A stretch of 53,238 nt of DNA from an uncultured Anaerolineae bacterium (GCA_964533805.1 CAZHMJ010000004.1:1-53238); one strand, 5' to 3'. Shown: positions 8,755 to 37,131, counted from the first letter of the stretch. A program made the numbers and translations. The notes: generated by a model not told the origin, from the sequence alone.

Positions 8755-10317
8755 TCAGACCTTTTTGGTAACTCGGAACTGGATCGGCATGCCCAGCATC
8801 AACTGCGTCTGCGCCTGGATGGTCGGAATCGCCAGGATGACGAGCAGCAGGAAAGGCAGCAAGGGGAAACTCAGCACGGTAGTCAGTACCTCGCGAAAGG
8901 TCCACGGCCTGGGCCGGGGCGGCCGGATACGCATGTCCAGCACCCAAAACACAAACCCCAGGATCGACACAATCGCGAGCGAGATTTGCAGGAGCAGGAA
9001 CGGGGCCGTGTTCCATTCCGAGAAAAACAGGGTGGGATACAACACCTGGACCACCATCGGTCCCAGGGTCATGATCACCCACCCGGCTCCGGCCAGGATG
9101 ATGTCATGCGCCACCCGGAAGAAGAGCCGCAGTCCACGTTGAATTTCCATCTCCGGGTGCTCGATAATGCGGGCCAGGGCGTAACCGACCTCTTTGGACC
9201 CCCAGGCGTGGCGCAGCGACTGCTGGTAGCGGTTCTTGATGCTGTCCCAGAAGCCATTGCCGGTGGTAGCTTCGCCATAGAAGGGCAGATAGACCCGCTC
9301 CAGGCGAATCTTCCCATCCCGCTGGAAGAACGCCTTGATGAACATATGCCATTCGTCGGCGATCACATCCGAGTCCCAGTAGCCCACGCTGTCCAGCAGG
9401 CGCAGACTCAGCGCGTAAGAAGACATTGGCAAGGGGAACCAGCCCGGCGTGGAAAGATAGGCCAGCTCCCAGGCCGAAGAATAGGCATGCACCAGAGCGA
9501 TGGTCGGCGCGACATCCCAGATATTGCCATGATAACGAATCGGCGCCTGCCAGAAGCGACGGTAGCGATCCGTATGGAGCGCGAACAGGGTCGTCAGGCA
9601 GGCGAAATGGGAGGGATGCCAGGCGGTGTCGGCGTCCATCGTCGTGACCAGGATGTGATCGAGGTTGTAGCCTTTCTCATCGATCAGCTTGCGCTTGATC
9701 CAGCGCGCCGCCCAGGCCTCGTTGGCGGACTTGCACTGCATTTCGCCGGGCAATCCCTTGGGATGGATCGTGAAGTAGATGTGCAGGAACTTCGACTGGT
9801 ACTGGTCACGCAGCATCTCGGCCACCGGCTGCGCATTCGGATCGGCAGCTTCCATCGCCAGCACGATCACCATCTGGGTAGCCGCGTTCTCCTGGCGTGC
9901 CAGCGAATCCAGCGTCCGGCACAAGACCTGGGCCGGCTCCTTATAGGCCGCGATGATCACGACATGGAGGACGTCTTCCCGGCGTAGGCTGTCCGGTCCA
10001 ACCCGGCGATCATACTCTTCCTGCCAGTCGATCCGCTCCCAATGCCGGATGCGGCGCAGTCCAACCAGATTGGCGGCTGCCCCAACGGCAAAGCGCAGCG
10101 CGGAATAGAAGCCCACGATCGCCGCGATCGTCACCACGAGCCGCGGCCGCAGCACCGCGCCGGCCACGGTCAACAGGAGGGCGATCCAGGCCAGAAAGCC
10201 GGGAATCCCATCCAGGATTTGTTCGGGAATAGCAGGGGGCGGCGCGCCACCCCAGATGGATCGCCCCACCCCGAACTGGACGCTATTCCGCCGATTACCA
10301 CTGGATCGATAAGGCAT
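8755..10317 (-). CDS. membrane-embedded family 2 glycosyltransferase (processive-synthase-like topology)
   Basis: TM helices at both ends. GT-A core with VIIAAYKE..., TTMDADT (DxD) and a QQSLRHAWG segment resembling QxxRW. Confidence 0.7.
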   Translation of the reverse strand: MPYRSSGNRRNSVQFGVGRSIWGGAPPPAIPEQILDGIPGFLAWIALLLTVAGAVLRPRLVVTIAAIVGFYSALRFAVGAAANLVGLRRIRHWERIDWQEEYDRRVGPDSLRREDVLHVVIIAAYKEPAQVLCRTLDSLARQENAATQMVIVLAMEAADPNAQPVAEMLRDQYQSKFLHIYFTIHPKGLPGEMQCKSANEAWAARWIKRKLIDEKGYNLDHILVTTMDADTAWHPSHFACLTTLFALHTDRYRRFWQAPIRYHGNIWDVAPTIALVHAYSSAWELAYLSTPGWFPLPMSSYALSLRLLDSVGYWDSDVIADEWHMFIKAFFQRDGKIRLERVYLPFYGEATTGNGFWDSIKNRYQQSLRHAWGSKEVGYALARIIEHPEMEIQRGLRLFFRVAHDIILAGAGWVIMTLGPMVVQVLYPTLFFSEWNTAPFLLLQISLAIVSILGFVFWVLDMRIRPPRPRPWTFREVLTTVLSFPLLPFLLLVILAIPTIQAQTQLMLGMPIQFRVTKKV

Positions 10318-28979: not shown

Positions 28980-31763
28980 ATGGACGCAACGCTGGAACTT
29001 CCTCCCAGCCCCTCATCAACCAGGCGCCACCGGGGACAGGCGCTGGCAGAATTCGCGCTCACGCTGCCAATTCTGCTGTTACTGCTGTTCGGGATCATCG
29101 AGTTCGCCCGGATTTTCCAGGCCTGGGTGACCCTGCAGAACGCGGCCCGCACCGCCGCCCGGTATGCCACGACCGGACAGGTGGAAAGCGCCGAGTTGGA
29201 AGCTATCGCCGACACCTTCGCCATCAGCGTCGGTGACGCTGCTGCTGCGGCGGCGGACGGCACTCGCAACCAGCTCTGCCTGAACGGCGACTACCGCGGG
29301 ACGCATGCGGCTTACGGACCTTATACGCCGGGCAGCTATCAGGACTACGAGTCCGTCTTCGCCAATCACTGGGATGGCCTCGACTGCGAGCCGGGTAGTG
29401 AAGACCACAAAGGCCTGATCAACGACCTGGGGCGTATCGGATCGATCCGCAACCAGGCGCGCATCGGCGCGGCCGGTCTGGACATCCGGATGTGGGATGA
29501 ACAGGCCTACGCCATCGAAGCCGATCCCACCACCGGTGACTTCGTGCGCTGGGCCAACAGCGAAGTACCCGGCTGGTTCCATGTCTTCATCTGTTCGGGC
29601 CGCCCCACCCTGCGCGAGGGTGACGATCCGCCTAACTCGATTGCGCTGCGCTACGCCATGAATCGCGAGGCCCTGACCTGTGCGGTCCAGGAATCCCGCG
29701 GCAGTGACACGAGCGACGACCCGCAGACCGTCAATAACTACGGGAATCTCCAGTGGGACGCCGGTGGTCCGGGTGACCCGGTTGAGATCATCATCACCTT
29801 CAACCACCCGCTGATCACCCCCCTGGCGCTGCCGACCTACGTCCAGCTCCAGGCCCGGCGCGTGATGGTCAACGAGGCTTTCCGTTCCTCGCGCGTGGTC
29901 AATCTGCCGCCGGTCAACTCCGGCCCAACCGACACACCGACGCACACGTTTACACCATCTGAGGTGCCTCCGGCGACGGAAACCCACACGCCGACCTTCA
30001 CGCCCACCCACACCGAGACCCCGACGGCGACCGGAACGGCGACCGCCACCCCAACACCGGATTGCACGATGCTCTCGATCGTTAGCACCGGCTTCAGCGG
30101 GGCGTACTACCAGGTCAGCATCCGCAACGAGAACCTCGGCTCACTCAACCTGGAAGGCGTGCGGCTTGAATGGACCAAGCACGCGCTCTTCCCGAACATG
30201 TACGCCGACTGGATGCAGTGGAACGGCCAGACTCACTGGGATGGCTCCGACACCACACCGCCCACCATCACCGGCGCGGCGCCTGGCCCCGGCACCGACC
30301 TGACCTGGAACAACAATGCCAACGTGCTCCTGGCAGGCAACAGCACCGCCACCTGGCAGGTGCGCTTCGCCAACGGCCCGTATGACCTGTCGGCCTACTA
30401 CAACCGGCCGGACTTCAACGGCTCCACCTGGTACTTCAGCAATGGGTGCGTGCTCCAAATCGATGAGGCGCCTCCGACAGCACCCGTTGGGCCGCCCACC
30501 AGCACGCCCACCCCGGTCTGCGGCACCTACAACCTGCGCTTCGAGGCCTTCTGGCCGCACGGCGTGGTCCAGTTCAGCATCACTAACCCGGGTGGCACGC
30601 CAATCCAGATCACGGGCATCGACATGCACTGGGTGTACTACTACAGCGGGATGAACCTCGACTTCATCTCCATCGGAGGCAACAACGCCTTCGACCCGGC
30701 CACGGTCACCGTCTGGAATGGCAATGACCTGGGGACGACCGTCGGTGGGGCGACCACCACGGCCACCGGCACGCTGGGTAGCGAGCCTACCTGGCTGATC
30801 AACGCCACAGTCAATGTCGGCGACACCGTGTACATGTGGCTGGACTACGACGGGACGTCCGAGTCGCTGGACACGGGCTATGGCGCTCACGACTACGACT
30901 TCAATGGCACACGGATAGCCTTCGACAACGGCTGCATCATCACGCCGCCCACCATCAATACGCCCATTCCGCCCCAGTGCGGTGACACCATCGTTCAGGC
31001 CGATCGCGGCGAGCAGTGCGACGACGGCAATACCGTCCAGAACGATAGCTGCGACAACAACTGCAAGTACACCTGCGGCAACAATGTAATCCTGGCGCCG
31101 GAGACCTGCGACGACGGTAACCGGACCAGCGGCGACGGCTGCAACAGTTCCTGCCGGACCGAGTACTGCGGCGATGGCACCCGACAGTCGGCCCTCGGCG
31201 AGCAGTGCGACGACGGCAATACCAACAATACCGACAGTTGCAGCAACAGTTGTACGCTCACCTGCGGCAATGGCACCGTCGCCGGGTCCGAGCAGTGCGA
31301 CGACGGCAACCGCAACAATGGCGACGGCTGCAACAGCTCTTGCCAGTGGGAATACTGCGGTGACTGGACCATCAACAAGGACCACAACACCGGCGTTGTG
31401 GACCAGTGCGACGACGGCAACACCAACAATGGCGATGGCTGCTCAAGCACCTGCCGTACCGAAGCGCCGGTCTGCGGAAATGGCCGGGTGGAATCGGGCG
31501 AGCAATGCGATCCGCCCAACAGCGCGAACCACTGCTCCAGCACCTGCCGATGGCTGCCGTACTGTGGTGATGGTACGGTCAACCAGGCCAGCGAGCAGTG
31601 CGAGCCGCCCAACACCTCGACCTGCAATGCGTCCTGCCAGACCATCGCGGCCGCGCCGGTCTGCGGCAACGGGGTGGTGGAAACCGGCGAACAGTGCGAG
31701 CCGCCCAACACCTCCGTCTGCGGCGCCGACTGCAAGTACAGCGTCTGCATGGACTGCGGTTAG
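28980..31763 (+). CDS. 927-aa TadE-like N-terminus fused to a large extracellular region ending in 8 Cys-rich repeats
   Basis: RGQALAEFALTLPILLLLLFGIIEFARIF.....AARYATTG is the TadE helix. There is a Thr/Pro linker at about aa 310-350. The C-terminus has 8 units of CG(D/N)G.....EQCD(D/P)(G/P)N......C...C (myxococcal Cys-rich repeat/DUF4215 type). Confidence 0.75.
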   Translation: MDATLELPPSPSSTRRHRGQALAEFALTLPILLLLLFGIIEFARIFQAWVTLQNAARTAARYATTGQVESAELEAIADTFAISVGDAAAAAADGTRNQLCLNGDYRGTHAAYGPYTPGSYQDYESVFANHWDGLDCEPGSEDHKGLINDLGRIGSIRNQARIGAAGLDIRMWDEQAYAIEADPTTGDFVRWANSEVPGWFHVFICSGRPTLREGDDPPNSIALRYAMNREALTCAVQESRGSDTSDDPQTVNNYGNLQWDAGGPGDPVEIIITFNHPLITPLALPTYVQLQARRVMVNEAFRSSRVVNLPPVNSGPTDTPTHTFTPSEVPPATETHTPTFTPTHTETPTATGTATATPTPDCTMLSIVSTGFSGAYYQVSIRNENLGSLNLEGVRLEWTKHALFPNMYADWMQWNGQTHWDGSDTTPPTITGAAPGPGTDLTWNNNANVLLAGNSTATWQVRFANGPYDLSAYYNRPDFNGSTWYFSNGCVLQIDEAPPTAPVGPPTSTPTPVCGTYNLRFEAFWPHGVVQFSITNPGGTPIQITGIDMHWVYYYSGMNLDFISIGGNNAFDPATVTVWNGNDLGTTVGGATTTATGTLGSEPTWLINATVNVGDTVYMWLDYDGTSESLDTGYGAHDYDFNGTRIAFDNGCIITPPTINTPIPPQCGDTIVQADRGEQCDDGNTVQNDSCDNNCKYTCGNNVILAPETCDDGNRTSGDGCNSSCRTEYCGDGTRQSALGEQCDDGNTNNTDSCSNSCTLTCGNGTVAGSEQCDDGNRNNGDGCNSSCQWEYCGDWTINKDHNTGVVDQCDDGNTNNGDGCSSTCRTEAPVCGNGRVESGEQCDPPNSANHCSSTCRWLPYCGDGTVNQASEQCEPPNTSTCNASCQTIAAAPVCGNGVVETGEQCEPPNTSVCGADCKYSVCMDCG
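30977..31760 (+). repeat. eight tandem ~93-100-nt Cys-rich coding repeats with exact shared 20-mers
   Basis: gagcagtgcgacgacggcaa occurs identically at 31011, 31200 and 31290. The protein units were listed by eye. Confidence 0.8.
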
Positions 31764-32718: not shown

Positions 32719-33855
32719 CTACCCCACAAAGCCCAATGCCGCAGCCTCGCTTTCAGGTGTCAAAGGCGCGGATGCCTCGCCCTGCCCCACTGGAGCATAG
32801 TTCAGTCCTTCGTCCATGCAGGCCCCGAACTCACCCAACCCGATCCGGCCGCTGGCCAGCTCCGTCGTGCAATGTTCGAGGTTGAAAGAGAAGTCACCGG
32901 CCGAGCCAAGCTGGCTAAACTGCTGAAGCTGGCCGGTCAGCACCAGCAAGCCAATCACGATCAGGAACAGGCCGCTCACCAATTCGATCGTCTTCATGTG
33001 GCGCTGTAAGCGGCGCAGCAGTCCCTGCATCCGGTCAAGCGCGACCGCAGTCAGCAGGAAGGGCACGCCCAATCCCAGCGAATAGGCGGTCAGCAGCAGC
33101 CCGGCCTGGCTCAACGAACCGCCATTGGCAGCCAGAGTCAGCACCGCGCCATACACCGGGCCGATGCAAGGGGTCCACCCGGCGGAAAAGACGATGCCCA
33201 TCAGGGCCGACCCGGCATAGCCAGCCTCGCTGCGCGCCTGCATCTGGCGGCGTGTATCGGCATACAGCAGCGTTTGCAGGCGAGCCAGCGTCTTCATCCA
33301 GAAATCGCCCGGCCGGGTCAGCGCCCCACCCCAAAGGAGCCAGACCGCGTACAGCCCCACCCCGATCACGATCGGGATCAGCGTCACCAGCGACCAGGCC
33401 AGTACCGCGCCAATAAGCACCTCGACAGCCAGCGTGATCACATAGCCTGAGCCGCCGTTCATCTGGCCAGTCTTGCCCATCACCCAGGCGATGAAGCGCG
33501 GCAGAATCCCCATCACGTGTAGCCCAAAGAGGATGATCACAAGACCACCCAGGCGGGCCAGAATTTCCTGCACATCCACAATCGAGCCGCGCAGGGCCAG
33601 TGACCCGGCCGTGGTCAGCAGGCCAAAGGTCACGAAAACAAATGTGAAACCCAGTACGAAAAAAAGACCATGAATCAGCGTGTTGAAACGGTTCTGGCGC
33701 ACAGCGGCAGCCCCGCCGCCGGCCATCGCCGCGACCTGGGTTGTCACCTGGCCGCCCAGATAGCCCACGTAAGCCGGCACCAACGGCAGCACGCAGGGCG
33801 AGACGAACGACACCAGCCCGGCGATAAAGGCGATTCCGATCGTGATATCAGCCAT
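32719..33855 (-). CDS. ccdA: CcdA/DsbD-family transmembrane thiol-disulfide electron transporter (extended form)
   Basis: FVSPCVLPLVPAYVGYLGG and GWTPCIGPVYGAVL, the two conserved Cys-containing helices. About 140 aa longer than typical CcdA. Confidence 0.85.
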   Translation of the reverse strand: MADITIGIAFIAGLVSFVSPCVLPLVPAYVGYLGGQVTTQVAAMAGGGAAAVRQNRFNTLIHGLFFVLGFTFVFVTFGLLTTAGSLALRGSIVDVQEILARLGGLVIILFGLHVMGILPRFIAWVMGKTGQMNGGSGYVITLAVEVLIGAVLAWSLVTLIPIVIGVGLYAVWLLWGGALTRPGDFWMKTLARLQTLLYADTRRQMQARSEAGYAGSALMGIVFSAGWTPCIGPVYGAVLTLAANGGSLSQAGLLLTAYSLGLGVPFLLTAVALDRMQGLLRRLQRHMKTIELVSGLFLIVIGLLVLTGQLQQFSQLGSAGDFSFNLEHCTTELASGRIGLGEFGACMDEGLNYAPVGQGEASAPLTPESEAAALGFVG

Positions 33856-33961: not shown

Positions 33962-34810
33962 CTACACCACTTCCAGCCACCCGCCCGCCGGCAGCCAGCC
34001 ATACAGCCAGCGCGCCAGCGCGGAGGGGACCTCCCAGCCCGCGCCCGCACCCATCCGGCCAAACCGGTTGTGCCAGTGTACACCATAGACCAGCGCCGGA
34101 CCGGCGCGTAGCACCCATGCCGCACCAGGAAGCAGCGCCGCACTGGAAAGCGCGCGGCATTCCAGGCGGAAGCGGCCTGGTTCCGCTCCGGCAGGCACCG
34201 AAACAGGCAGGCGCAGCATCTCATCCCCATCCTCAAGCACGAGAATGGTTCCGGTCGTCCGGTCGAGCCGCAGGCCGCGCCGGACCGGGTGAATGTCGGG
34301 CGCAGCAGGTGGAATCACCGCCAGCCAGCGATCGGCAGGAGTCCAACCCAGCAACTCACTCTGCAAATCGGGCGCGACCGCCAGCCAGTCCCCCTCGCCT
34401 GCCAGACAATCGCGCACGAGCATCACCCCGCCGTATCCCACACGTTCCACCAGCGGCGCGTCGGCCGCGGCCCATGCCCGCAAGGGAGCTATTGGCGCAC
34501 AAACGCACGCCCAACCGGGGCCAGTCAGCGACGCGACTCCGACCAGCGGCAGCATCGGCTGGGCGTCCTCGCGGTGCAGATACCCCTCACGGGTTGCGTA
34601 CCAATCCTCGGCGACATCCTGTAACGCCACCACGCTGTCCGGCCACAACCGGCCCACAACCTCGGCGTTGGCAGCAGGCCGTTGGTAGATTTCGGCGGCG
34701 GTCAGCGCGCGCGCCCAAACCGGCGCATCGGGGAATTCCGGTTCAATTGGGAAAGCCGAAGCCAGCGTAGCCGCGCCACACCAGCCCAGAAAAGTTCGCC
34801 GTGAAATCAC
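33962..34810 (-). CDS. Tat-signal secreted protein, SH3b-like N-terminal part and a degenerate L,D-transpeptidase-like C-terminus
   Basis: MISRRTFLGWCGAATLASA is a twin-arginine signal. The tail YGVHWHN.FGRMGAGAGWEVP..LARWLY only loosely recalls YkuD and has no Cys at the catalytic position. Confidence 0.45.
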   Translation of the reverse strand: MISRRTFLGWCGAATLASAFPIEPEFPDAPVWARALTAAEIYQRPAANAEVVGRLWPDSVVALQDVAEDWYATREGYLHREDAQPMLPLVGVASLTGPGWACVCAPIAPLRAWAAADAPLVERVGYGGVMLVRDCLAGEGDWLAVAPDLQSELLGWTPADRWLAVIPPAAPDIHPVRRGLRLDRTTGTILVLEDGDEMLRLPVSVPAGAEPGRFRLECRALSSAALLPGAAWVLRAGPALVYGVHWHNRFGRMGAGAGWEVPSALARWLYGWLPAGGWLEVV

Positions 34811-34848: not shown

Positions 34849-34875
34849 ACAAAAACCGGGGGATTGCCCCCGGTT
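34849..34875 (-). terminator. intrinsic terminator ending the rhodanese-to-thioredoxin operon
   Basis: Minus strand: AACCGGGGG-caau-CCCCCGGUU followed by UUUGU. Confidence 0.7.
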
Positions 34876-34903: not shown

Positions 34904-35497
34904 TCAACCTCCGGCAAGCAGCCGGTCGAGCGCCGCCTGGAGCTGTTCCTCAGTCTGGAAACCGACCAGGCGCTCCACCAGGGTGCCGTCTGAATCCAGC
35001 AGCACGATCAAAGGAATGGCCGACACCTGATAGCGATAAGCCAGATCGCGCGTCGAAAGGAGATCGGCATTGAGAATGTGAAACGTGACCCGGTCTGCAT
35101 ACGCTTCTTCCAGCCGTCGCACGGACGGACGCATTGCGTTGCAGGTACTTCACCACCGAGCCTGGAACTCCACGAAATGCGGCCGGCCGTTGAGCTCGAT
35201 GGCGTACGGTGTGGCCGAAAGATCCTGGGTCGGGATGAGACCGGCGATGGCGGTCAACGTAGCCAGCGGCCCGGTCATCGTCGGGGCCTCGGTCGGCAGG
35301 ATAAACAGGCTGGGTGGCGGCGTGGCCGTCGCGCTTCCGGGCACCGGTGTGGGCAGCGCGGCGATCTGCCCCCCCAACGGCGCGTCCTGCGCCGGAAGGG
35401 AGCCGACCACCGTCCTGAGGCTATCCACCAGCAGGGTACAGGCTCCCGTCGCCAGGGCAAGTAACGTCAGAGCCAGCAGCAACAGCGCACGTTTCAT
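34904..35497 (-). CDS. exported thioredoxin-fold thiol-disulfide oxidoreductase with an in-frame TGA at the first Cys of the CXXC motif (selenocysteine candidate, or pseudogene)
   Basis: Track ORFs 35150..35497 and 34904..35134 share one frame. The joined read is ...RPHFVEFQARW-TGA(35152..35150)-STCNAMRPSVRRLEE.... Signal peptide MKRALLLLALTLLALATGAC. The cis-Pro region YQVSAIPLIVLL lies downstream. Confidence 0.6.
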
Positions 35498-35575: not shown

Positions 35576-36619
35576 CTATTCACGCGCCCGCACCACAATA
35601 GCATGGATCGCGTCGGTTCCATCCGGATAGGCCCCGCTGTCTGGGCCAGGCATCCGGCTCTGGACAAAGCCGCTCTCGTCCGTAGCTCGTACGCAGATCG
35701 AGACGTCGCCGGGCTGCTCTGGAGTCCAGTGGGTATACCACTGCGTCCAGGCATGGCGGCTCACCGCCGGGCGAATCGTGACCGGCATCCAGGTCCCACC
35801 GTCGACGCTCACCTCGACCGCGCGGATGGCCCGCTCGCCGGCATACGCCACTCCTTGTAGCGCGACCGGTTCCCCAACCTGCACCTCACTCTGCGAGACA
35901 GGCGTATCGATCCGCGACCAGGTTTTGACCAGACCGGAAGCCGACCAGCCGTGCGGGGCGCGCTCCCAGGTCCCGACAGGTTCGTAATCGACCAGGGTGA
36001 TAGCCTTGAGCCACTTGGGCGATTTCAGCCCATACCGGCCGGGGAACACCACGCGCAGCGGGTAGCCGTGCTCACGCGGCAGCCGCCCGCCGTTCATCTC
36101 ATAAGCCAGCAGCACCCCGGCATCCGCCACTTCGGTCAGCGGCAGGCCAGTCGTGTACCCGTCCGCCGACTCGAAGCAGAGGTGAGTCGCCTCCGCTCGG
36201 ACGCCTGTCCGCGCCAGCAGGTCGGCCAGCCGGACGCCCCGCCAGGTGGCGTTGCCGATCTGGTCGCCGCCCGGCACGTTGCCGATGCACATCAGCGTGC
36301 AGGTGTCCAGAGCGCTGGGCAGCGTCCACAACTGGGTCAGCGACAGAAACAGCGGAGTCTCCACCAGCCCGCCCACCGCCAGCCGCCACGTACCCAGGTC
36401 GATCTCCGGCGCTTCCGTCCCAGGCCGGTAGGTCTGACGGAAGAACTGGCCGTTGAGCGTAATCAGGGGCCGGTCGTGCGTCAGCGTCATCGGCCGCGAG
36501 GCCGGCTTCCTCCCCGGCTGCGGCGGCAGTACCTCCTTTGGGGGAGAGTCTAACGTCCCGGTCAGGGCGCGGAAGAATCCCCGGCGGGAGAGCCGGGCAG
36601 GACCATTCGAGTCGGGCAT
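35576..36619 (-). CDS. Tat-exported sulfite-oxidase-family molybdopterin oxidoreductase (SorA/SUOX-like with dimerisation domain)
   Basis: Start moved to MPDSNGPARLSRRGFFRAL (Tat motif). Mo-ligand region LMCIGNVPGGDQIGNATWRGVRLADLL. C-terminal Ig-like Mo-co dimerisation segment VQGVAYAGERAIRAVEVSVDGGTW. Confidence 0.8.
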   Translation of the reverse strand: MPDSNGPARLSRRGFFRALTGTLDSPPKEVLPPQPGRKPASRPMTLTHDRPLITLNGQFFRQTYRPGTEAPEIDLGTWRLAVGGLVETPLFLSLTQLWTLPSALDTCTLMCIGNVPGGDQIGNATWRGVRLADLLARTGVRAEATHLCFESADGYTTGLPLTEVADAGVLLAYEMNGGRLPREHGYPLRVVFPGRYGLKSPKWLKAITLVDYEPVGTWERAPHGWSASGLVKTWSRIDTPVSQSEVQVGEPVALQGVAYAGERAIRAVEVSVDGGTWMPVTIRPAVSRHAWTQWYTHWTPEQPGDVSICVRATDESGFVQSRMPGPDSGAYPDGTDAIHAIVVRARE

Positions 36620-36654
36620 ATCTATCCTTCCTGCAGCGATCGAATAAGCTGAGT

Positions 36655-37131
36655 TCAGGCCCGGCGTTCGCGCTGGCGCCATCGCGCAGCCTCGCGCACC
36701 ATCGCCACGATTCCCATCAAACCCTGGCCTTTGCCCATCGAGATGTTCCGGCCAAAAATGGCAAGTACAATCTCGTCGGAGACCTGGGCCACCTGTTCCA
36801 ACGGTTGGCCGGACAGCGTTTGATCGAGAATAGCCGCCATCGCCTTCGCCGACAAACCTTGAGGGTTTTCGACGGCGAAATGGAATTTGAGCGTCCCATC
36901 TGGCCGGTCTTCCGCCCAGACATAAGCCTCCGACTCGCAGAACGGCACCCGGTGATCTTCGGGATAAGGCGGCATCGCGATGCGGGCCGGCACGGGCTGG
37001 AACTGGTCGGCCAACTCGATCAGGTAGGCCGATCGTTCCTCGCGGTCAGTGATCAGGCTGAAATCCTGCAAAACCCGGTTGAGTGTTTCGGGAATGCTGG
37101 GCGAAGTCACGCTTCCATCCTTCCAGTCCAT
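36655..37131 (-). CDS. SufE/CsdE-like sulfur acceptor protein
   Basis: YLIELADQF..., conserved Cys in FCESEAYVWAE, and GKGQGLMGIVAMVR matching the SufE C-terminal motif. Confidence 0.75.
   Translation of the reverse strand: MDWKDGSVTSPSIPETLNRVLQDFSLITDREERSAYLIELADQFQPVPARIAMPPYPEDHRVPFCESEAYVWAEDRPDGTLKFHFAVENPQGLSAKAMAAILDQTLSGQPLEQVAQVSDEIVLAIFGRNISMGKGQGLMGIVAMVREAARWRQRERRA

Follow-up and report, generated by a model that had tools for sequence, protein, structure and literature searches.

We suggest that a thioredoxin-like gene on the minus strand of a 53,238-nucleotide (nt) stretch of DNA from an uncultured Anaerolineae bacterium (GCA_964533805.1, CAZHMJ010000004.1:1-53238; an entire 53 kb contig, here called the window) encodes a selenoprotein. 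An in-frame UGA stands in this gene, which we call trxU-like, where thioredoxins carry their nucleophilic cysteine. The UGA is a recoded codon, most probably for selenocysteine (Sec), a reading to which we give a probability of roughly 0.86, and the gene is very probably a real, unannotated selenoprotein of an already known kind. A preliminary description of the locus had put forward a candidate UxxC selenoprotein, and that proposal is supported by the conservation of the TGA, by a covarying hairpin behind it and by a cysteine orthologue without the hairpin.

On the minus strand, positions 35497..34904 form a single frame that is broken only by the TGA at 35152..35150, and the terminal stop of the gene is itself a TGA, at 34906..34904. 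The frame runs from MKRALLLLALTLLALATGAC through a stretch rich in Pro, Thr and Ala to HFVEFQARW-TGA-STCNAMRPSVRRLEEAY, and on through VSAIPLIVLL to LLAGG. The redox motif as read is W-TGA-S-T-C, and five sense codons (S T C N A) lie between the TGA and the ATG of a second annotated open reading frame (ORF). The preliminary description had seen two ORFs in one frame, split by a TGA and five sense codons, with the TGA at the first Cys of the CXXC motif of a thioredoxin-fold protein; coordinates and codon count agree with the former point, and family and structure comparisons with the latter. When the joined product was scored with U written as C, it matched Pfam Thioredoxin (PF00085) at 52.8 bits against a gathering cut-off of 23.5 (E 4.4e-14), and solved thioredoxins aligned to it gaplessly (E 3e-13), with W-C-G-P-C over W-U-S-T-C.

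The TGA is conserved. A protein search returned 22 truncated homologues of 52-87% identity, all of which stop at the identical point, ...F-x-A-x-W. Nineteen Chloroflexota loci, labelled Anaerolineae, Anaerolineaceae, Ardenticatenia or 'Chloroflexia', came from a scan with one genome for each species; the codon is TGA in 18 of them and TGC in one. In a metagenome scan it was TGA at 17 of 18 orthologous loci, with the TGC form recurring in the other. Metagenome-assembled genomes with the TGA form include CAWKMN01, CAWGXG01, CAYRNY01, CAKZOB01, JAIOAT01, DAOTXK01 and DAOUEM01, and the Cys form is in JAHDWP01. The two TGC loci (L019 and L039) represent one distinct Cys orthologue, and TGC is the only codon other than TGA seen at the Sec position. 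After duplicates were removed, 30 distinct 84-nt sequences around the TGA remained, that of the window and 29 further ones, against the one distinct TGC sequence, which answers the question raised in the preliminary description of what orthologues carry here. The alignment of the 30 is gapless, and no indel breaks frame or spacing. Among relatives with TGA, protein identity falls as low as about 45-50% for the N-terminal part and 54-69% for the thioredoxin part, and in the scans run here the family is restricted to Chloroflexota/Anaerolineae. All sources but one cut the protein short after about 115 residues; in NCBI and JGI it goes under 'hypothetical protein'. The exception, P0001 (JGI, 202 amino acids), is a single gene call that puts Trp at the TGA (ARW-W-STC) and carries the name thiol-disulfide isomerase/thioredoxin; the call looks code-4-type and lies on a 1 kb contig.

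With the same TGA in 30 distinct sequences from independent assemblies and a downstream ORF that is intact throughout the orthologues, we regard a pseudogene, a recent TGY-to-TGA nonsense mutation and an assembly or sequencing error as ruled out. This disposes of the alternative offered in the preliminary description, a one-base nonsense mutation or a sequencing error. A genetic code in which UGA is a sense codon would fit the one JGI call that reads Trp, as in code 4, but it has next to no weight here either: TGA ends 22 of the 49 long ORFs in the window, besides the trxU-like gene itself, and the DNA is 63% G+C.

The frame behind the TGA is also under selection at the protein level. Every orthologue has 80-86 in-frame codons after the TGA, and the downstream amino acids are conserved over differing codons: Leu70 and Gly55 are each written with four codons, and Asn+4 as AAC or AAT. 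Since conserved residues are encoded by varying codons, translation continues in-frame past the TGA, also through the five codons that precede the internal ATG. This makes it very unlikely that the UGA is a true stop, with the 115-residue lipoprotein functional by itself and the thioredoxin part either started separately at the ATG or unexpressed, as in a split gene. It is true that invariant residues also occur in the N-terminal region, which might serve a purpose by itself, that the ATG at +6 is invariant and that gene callers annotate the N-terminal ORF only. However, protein-level selection extends over the five codons that separate TGA and ATG (Cys+3 as TGC or TGT, Asn+4 as above), a fragment starting at Met122 would be without the signal peptide and the whole redox motif, indels that would uncouple the two halves are absent from the 30 sequences, and the Cys orthologue is a single continuous ORF. 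Moreover, a Met at position +6 is usual in thioredoxins, as in WCGPCKM. Judged by sequence comparison, the family thus appears to combine what is expected of a bacterial selenoprotein, namely a conserved UGA, a conserved downstream frame and a Cys homologue, and the TGC orthologue and its TGA counterparts look like a classic Sec/Cys pair.

The second line of evidence is the RNA downstream of the UGA, where the preliminary description had located a hairpin, CCGUC-CGUGC-GACGG, at 35128..35114. We find it at the same position: its core starts 21 nt and its loop 26 nt after the UGA, the loop is 5 nt long with G-U at positions 2-3, and the stem has 5-7 bp. On the alignment of 19 sequences, RNAalifold selects columns 34-38 with 44-48, which are 35128..35114. 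Across all 30 sequences this helix and its two outer pairs are paired in 85.7% of cells; no shuffle out of 500 came up to the observed value in paired fraction or in covariation score, and all slid registers scored far lower. The pair types include CG:6 and GC:5 at columns 33-49, CG:20, UG:5, GC:1 and UA:1 at 34-48, and CG:27 and GC:2 at 35-47, with a compensatory C-G to G-C swap at pair 34-48 in one locus (L026). The codons that make up the hairpin are synonymously frozen (CCG 12/12, TCC 18/19, GTG 19/19 and CGG 16/17 in the 19 sequences), and synonymous identity at codons +8 to +12 is 0.89, compared with 0.44 +/- 0.14 at 31 other four- or sixfold degenerate codons (Mann-Whitney p = 2.5e-4; 30 sequences). 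In the Cys orthologue the complementarity is lost, AMLPAVLRLQQ replacing AMRPSVRRLEE, and its 60-nt fold is worse than shuffles (z = +1.45), compared with z = -1.98 for the window. The hairpin owes its significance to the comparison with orthologues, the preliminary description having asked whether it covaries: it does, its codons are frozen and it is missing where the codon is Cys, and by these alignments it is selected as RNA.

The published model of the bacterial Sec insertion sequence (bSECIS) has a loop of 3-9 nt, an upper stem of at least 4 bp, a G in the first two loop positions, a spacing of 16-37 nt and a minimum free energy (MFE) of -7.5 kcal/mol or lower (PMC13188914). Under our own implementation of these rules, 16 of the 19 Sec-form sequences qualify, whereas the Cys form does not; the MFE criterion is reached only with flanking pairs, the 23-nt hairpin alone giving -7.3 kcal/mol. 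The 5' arm contains a CCGU-CCGU direct repeat (CCGUCCGU) that can pair with ACGG in two registers. For the 60 nt of the window, RNAfold favours the shifted one, with loop GCG; we rejected it, as the covariation at 34-48 supports the register with loop CGUGC instead.

Several observations weigh against Sec, and we set them out together. The preliminary description called the hairpin not compelling by eye, and its energy bears this out: taken by itself, the window's hairpin does not outperform shuffles (z = -0.11). Its stem is short, three of the 19 orthologues fail the implemented bSECIS rules, and in L002/L024 and L008 the hairpin is different or shifted. A longer alternative fold (columns 16-30 with 35-49), which we rejected, is mostly pairable and does not rise above the shuffle controls. 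Rfam gave no family match, either for the window at the gathering threshold or for 34950..35250 in permissive mode. No tRNA-Sec was found by ARAGORN in the window and 27 loci, nor by Rfam at gathering thresholds in the window, and tblastn with the E. coli SelA, SelB and SelD proteins had no match in the window or any fetched locus.

Two wider searches were also made. In a protein-database search with Aquifex SelA (from PDB 3W1H), the best 120 matches were all from Aquificota or Nitrospirae, and a scan of the window and L001-L019 for TGA flanked by coding-like frames brought out no second selenoprotein gene. SelB is encoded by Anaerolinea thermophila and, along with Sec formate dehydrogenases, by single-cell genomes of Anaerolineales (PMC4959059), and some Dehalococcoidia are rich in selenoproteins (PMC13326102); support for Sec machinery thus comes entirely from the literature, at the level of the lineage. 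That no such machinery turned up in the window or in any fetched locus that holds the gene also speaks for a different kind of recoding, in which Trp or Cys is inserted by near-cognate read-through, perhaps stimulated by the hairpin, or by a suppressor or Sec-like tRNA charged with Cys; the TGC orthologue indicates that Cys is tolerated at the position. We nevertheless hold this to be quite unlikely. The spacing of the hairpin and the G-U signature of its loop match the SelB-dependent bSECIS model, the hallmark of Sec/Cys exchange is a UGA in place of the nucleophilic Cys in CxxC (PMC1794560), and Sec decoding exists in Anaerolineales (PMC4959059). Moreover, TGY would be simpler if the product carried Cys, yet TGA is kept in 30 distinct sequences.

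Taking Sec as the preferred reading, we propose that UGA 35152..35150 encodes Sec in an active site W-U-S-T-C, within one 197-residue pre-protein made of a lipoprotein signal lipidated at Cys20, a conserved Pro- and Thr-rich tether some 75 residues long, and a thioredoxin domain of the classical type. During translation the hairpin at 35128..35114 would recruit SelB with Sec-tRNA(Sec), and the UGA would be read as Sec at codon 116. The unfolded pre-protein would then be exported via the Sec translocon, lipidated at Cys20 and cleaved, leaving the thioredoxin domain anchored by its tether to the outside of the cytoplasmic membrane. In this position it could act as an extracytoplasmic thiol-disulfide (selenenylsulfide) reductase that cycles between selenol/thiol and selenenylsulfide and is re-reduced by a membrane transporter like the CcdA-type protein encoded two genes downstream. 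SelB dependence, export, lipidation, CcdA as electron donor and the substrates are what we infer for the protein from these features.

Each part of the predicted pre-protein has its own record in the comparisons. The signal was compared with the lipobox rule by eye: 24 homologues all keep Cys20, many of them within typical lipoboxes (L-A-A-C, L-A-G-C, L-T-A-C), and a signal peptide with a lipobox and an invariant Cys would make the protein a predicted bacterial lipoprotein. AlphaFold2 was run on P0001 as a read-through homologue, and the model has a signal helix at 2-20, a low-confidence tether and a confident beta-alpha-beta-alpha-beta-beta-alpha domain, whose 10-residue blocks have a mean predicted local distance difference test (pLDDT) score mostly of 73-97, with dips to 59-67. 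Foldseek's top matches to it are classical thioredoxins at a target-normalised TM-score of about 0.6-0.7, and the list also includes ResA and the pneumococcal Etrx1. The joined product does not reach the cut-off of the TrxA equivalog model NCBIfam TIGR01068 (55.6 bits against 96.8), and on this score the window protein is thioredoxin-like rather than a TrxA orthologue. Nor are the cut-offs reached for ResA (NF002854, 29.3 against 170 bits), DsbE (TIGR00385, 17.7 against 123) or the StoA model (23 against 210). Among the selenoprotein-specific NCBIfam models (SaoT, TsoB, the HUIPC-motif Trx-like model and others) no cut-off was reached, the sole match being TsoB at 22.4 against 805 bits.

The tether has no Pfam match in a search with the joined product. 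What had passed for a Pro/Thr linker is not evolving freely: ten positions are invariant across the 24 homologues (G43, T50, T59, S63, P68, T69, L78, A79, T82 and T90), and the GPLATLTAIAGL motif is predicted as a short helix. In the P0001 model the tether has mostly low pLDDT, with a short helix at residues 82-90 over the motif LATLTAIAG. A simple selenoprotein reading leaves these many invariant residues unexplained; the tether could serve for docking, or a truncated product could owe a role of its own to it. The latter thought leads to a variant in which the UGA is a selenium-dependent switch that yields two functional products. Termination would leave a short lipoprotein of 95 residues, after cleavage of the 20-residue signal, with the GPLATLTAIAGL tether region; Sec insertion would give the full surface-tethered seleno-thioredoxin, and the redox capacity of the envelope would be tuned to selenium supply. 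We think such a switch unlikely. The features on which the argument for Sec has drawn, together with those nearby, are collected in Table 1.

Table 1. Positions of the trxU-like gene, its parts and nearby features in the window
Feature	Position	Strand	Basis and remarks
trxU-like gene, complete	34904..35497	-	198 codons including the in-frame UGA (codon 116); translation, PF00085, orthologues in-frame through the TGA
In-frame UGA, proposed Sec116	35150..35152	-	first (nucleophilic) Cys position of CxxC; aligned to the first Cys of WCGPC; TGA in orthologues
Resolving Cys119 of U-x-x-C	35141..35143	-	invariant Cys with synonymous variation, TGC 17 and TGT 2 (19 sequences)
Candidate bacterial SECIS hairpin	35112..35130	-	core CCGUC/GACGG at 35128..35114, apical loop CGUGC, up to two further outer pairs
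Predicted lipoprotein signal peptide	35438..35497	-	MKR, hydrophobic core, lipobox A-T-G-A-C; Cys20 at 35440..35438
Pro/Thr/Ala-rich tether, residues 21-96	35210..35437	-	invariant positions; motif GPLATLTAIAGL at 35272..35237
Thioredoxin-fold domain, residues ~97-197	34907..35209	-	beta-alpha-beta-alpha-beta-beta-alpha; PF00085, solved thioredoxins, AlphaFold2, Foldseek
cis-Pro P162 in V-S-A-I-P-L-I-V-L-L	35012..35014	-	over 'IP' of Alicyclobacillus thioredoxin (1NW2 alignment); invariant in orthologues
Intrinsic-terminator-like hairpin AACCGGGGG-CAAT-CCCCCGGTT and T-run	~34851..34875	-	sequence; scan match 34871..34859 and T tail; directly 3' of the gene
CcdA/DsbD-type membrane electron transporter	32719..33855	-	PF02683 DsbD_TM; context, not part of the gene

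In the clade of the window the gene is accompanied by genes for a cytoplasmic two-domain rhodanese, a SufE-like protein, a molybdoenzyme of the sulfite oxidase family with a twin-arginine translocation (Tat) signal, a 282-residue Tat-signal protein without family match, CcdA and a DUF2085 protein. The same neighbours are found again in L001, L003 and L018, with part of the set in L004, and CcdA is co-located with the thioredoxin gene only in the close clade of L001, L003 and L018; most of the remaining orthologues have the gene flanked by surE and rpsB-tsf-pyrH. Since the neighbourhood recurs in the close clade only, the sulfur and CcdA context is lineage-specific. The preliminary description had set the gene among sulfur-transfer genes and CcdA, which is right for the window and its close clade and wrong for most other orthologues, and we rejected the link as a family-wide feature. 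CcdA is indeed the second gene downstream (33855..32719), as had been said, and the view that the gene closes an operon is reasonable, with a terminator-like hairpin and T-run downstream.

Both flanking proteins carry twin-arginine motifs, SRRGFFRAL in the molybdoenzyme (35576..36682, minus strand) and ISRRTFLGW in the 282-residue protein (33962..34810, minus strand), and the locus would therefore encode several extracytoplasmic proteins. The 282-residue protein accompanies the thioredoxin gene in L001, L003, L004 and L018. Directly upstream of the thioredoxin gene there is a CMD/AhpD-family gene at L001:9514-9828, L004:~430-650 and L028:~9600-9800, in none of which a Cys or Sec motif was found, and a MobB-like P-loop gene lies upstream in L003, L004 and L022. 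In L001 and L003, CMD/AhpD or MobB-like genes thereby come between the molybdoenzyme and the thioredoxin gene; the corresponding interval in the window is just 78 bp. By their listed coordinates, the ORFs of the SufE-like protein and the molybdoenzyme share 28 nt (36655..36682, minus strand), which suggests translational coupling or a later true start of the molybdoenzyme. Farther away, an ORF of 927 residues on the plus strand (28980..31763) has a TadE-like hydrophobic N-terminus, Thr/Pro-rich linkers and Cys-rich 'CDDGN...C' repeats towards its C-terminus, and is probably a large secreted or pilus-associated protein.

Thioredoxin-fold selenoproteins of the UxxC type have been catalogued since the mid-2000s (PMC1794560 of 2006, PMC2398784 of 2008), and more than 100 bacterial selenoprotein families are now listed. 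The known list includes thioredoxin, 'Trx-like 1' (COG0526), a thiol:disulfide interchange protein, thiol-disulfide isomerase-like proteins, redoxin, UGC-type TlpA, and DsbA-like and DsbG-like proteins (PMC1794560, PMC2398784, PMC9312934, PMC13188914). That an exported bacterial selenoprotein would be unusual, as the preliminary description held, goes too far: the catalogues already contain selenoproteins of the DsbA-like, DsbG-like, thiol:disulfide interchange, TlpA-type and substrate-binding kinds (PMC1794560, PMC13188914). Our literature search, under Anaerolineae/Chloroflexota selenoproteins and under lipoprotein thioredoxin selenoproteins, found no description of the family. It is unannotated and scores below the cut-offs of the family models named above, although it may already sit in a generic Trx-like bin; what distinguishes it is the lipoprotein signal, the conserved tether and the restriction to Anaerolineae-type Chloroflexota. 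A separate case is an unrelated ORF resembling protein disulfide isomerase on metagenome contig Ga0073950_11176472 (L043:139-141), where ...TVFIEFQAPW-TGA-GHCKALKPAWEKLEAEF contains the motif W-U-G-H-C. Selenoproteins of the eukaryotic protein disulfide isomerase type have been reported from Global Ocean Sampling (GOS) data (PMC2398784), and this ORF probably encodes one.

For Anaerolineae, the practical consequence is that the 'hypothetical protein' of about 115 residues found across public databases is most probably the front half of a selenoprotein, and its annotation could be corrected. The gene would add a lipid-anchored UxxC protein of the classical thioredoxin type to the extracytoplasmic selenoproteins, and the 30 SECIS sequences, with a natural Cys control, should be useful for SECIS models of Chloroflexota. 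No known principle of Sec use is changed.

Sec thioredoxins and 'Trx-like 1' proteins are known as small cytoplasmic proteins. Like the window protein, they have a PF00085 fold, Sec at the N-terminal Cys of CxxC, a SECIS in the coding region just downstream and Cys homologues, as in the Treponema denticola thioredoxin and the COG0526 proteins of the GOS metagenomes (PMC13188914, PMC2398784, PMC1794560); in contrast to them, the window protein adds a predicted lipoprotein signal and a conserved tether some 75 residues long, and in the scans run occurs in Chloroflexota/Anaerolineae only. The predicted extracytoplasmic thioredoxin-fold selenoproteins (the UxxC thiol:disulfide interchange protein of PF13098, the UxxC thiol-disulfide isomerase-like protein of cd02966/PF13905, UGC-type TlpA, DsbA-like and DsbG-like) are likewise Sec thiol-disulfide oxidoreductases with a UxxC-type motif, from families whose usual place is outside the cytoplasm (PMC1794560, PMC9312934, PMC13188914), whereas the window protein is nearest in sequence and predicted structure to classical thioredoxin and not to TlpA/ResA/DsbE or DsbA. 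TsoB (NF045694), a rhodanese/DsbD fusion-like selenoprotein, brings together the same three modules (rhodanese, DsbD-type and Trx-like) that are separate genes in the window. Its model gives weak local matches here, about 22 bits with the thioredoxin protein and 45 bits with CcdA against the cut-off of 805, and with its UxxxxU motif and fused architecture it is resembled by the window in parts only. The working principle proposed here is that of ResA, CcmG, TlpA and the pneumococcal Etrx1-2, thioredoxins held at the membrane by an anchor or a lipid that receive their electrons from CcdA or DsbD; for the window protein the donor would be a CcdA-type transporter encoded nearby. Etrx1 (4HQS) is a surface lipoprotein thioredoxin, and both it and ResA are among the structural matches. 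However, these proteins use Cys rather than Sec and carry TlpA-type insertions, and in the window family CcdA is adjacent only in the close clade.

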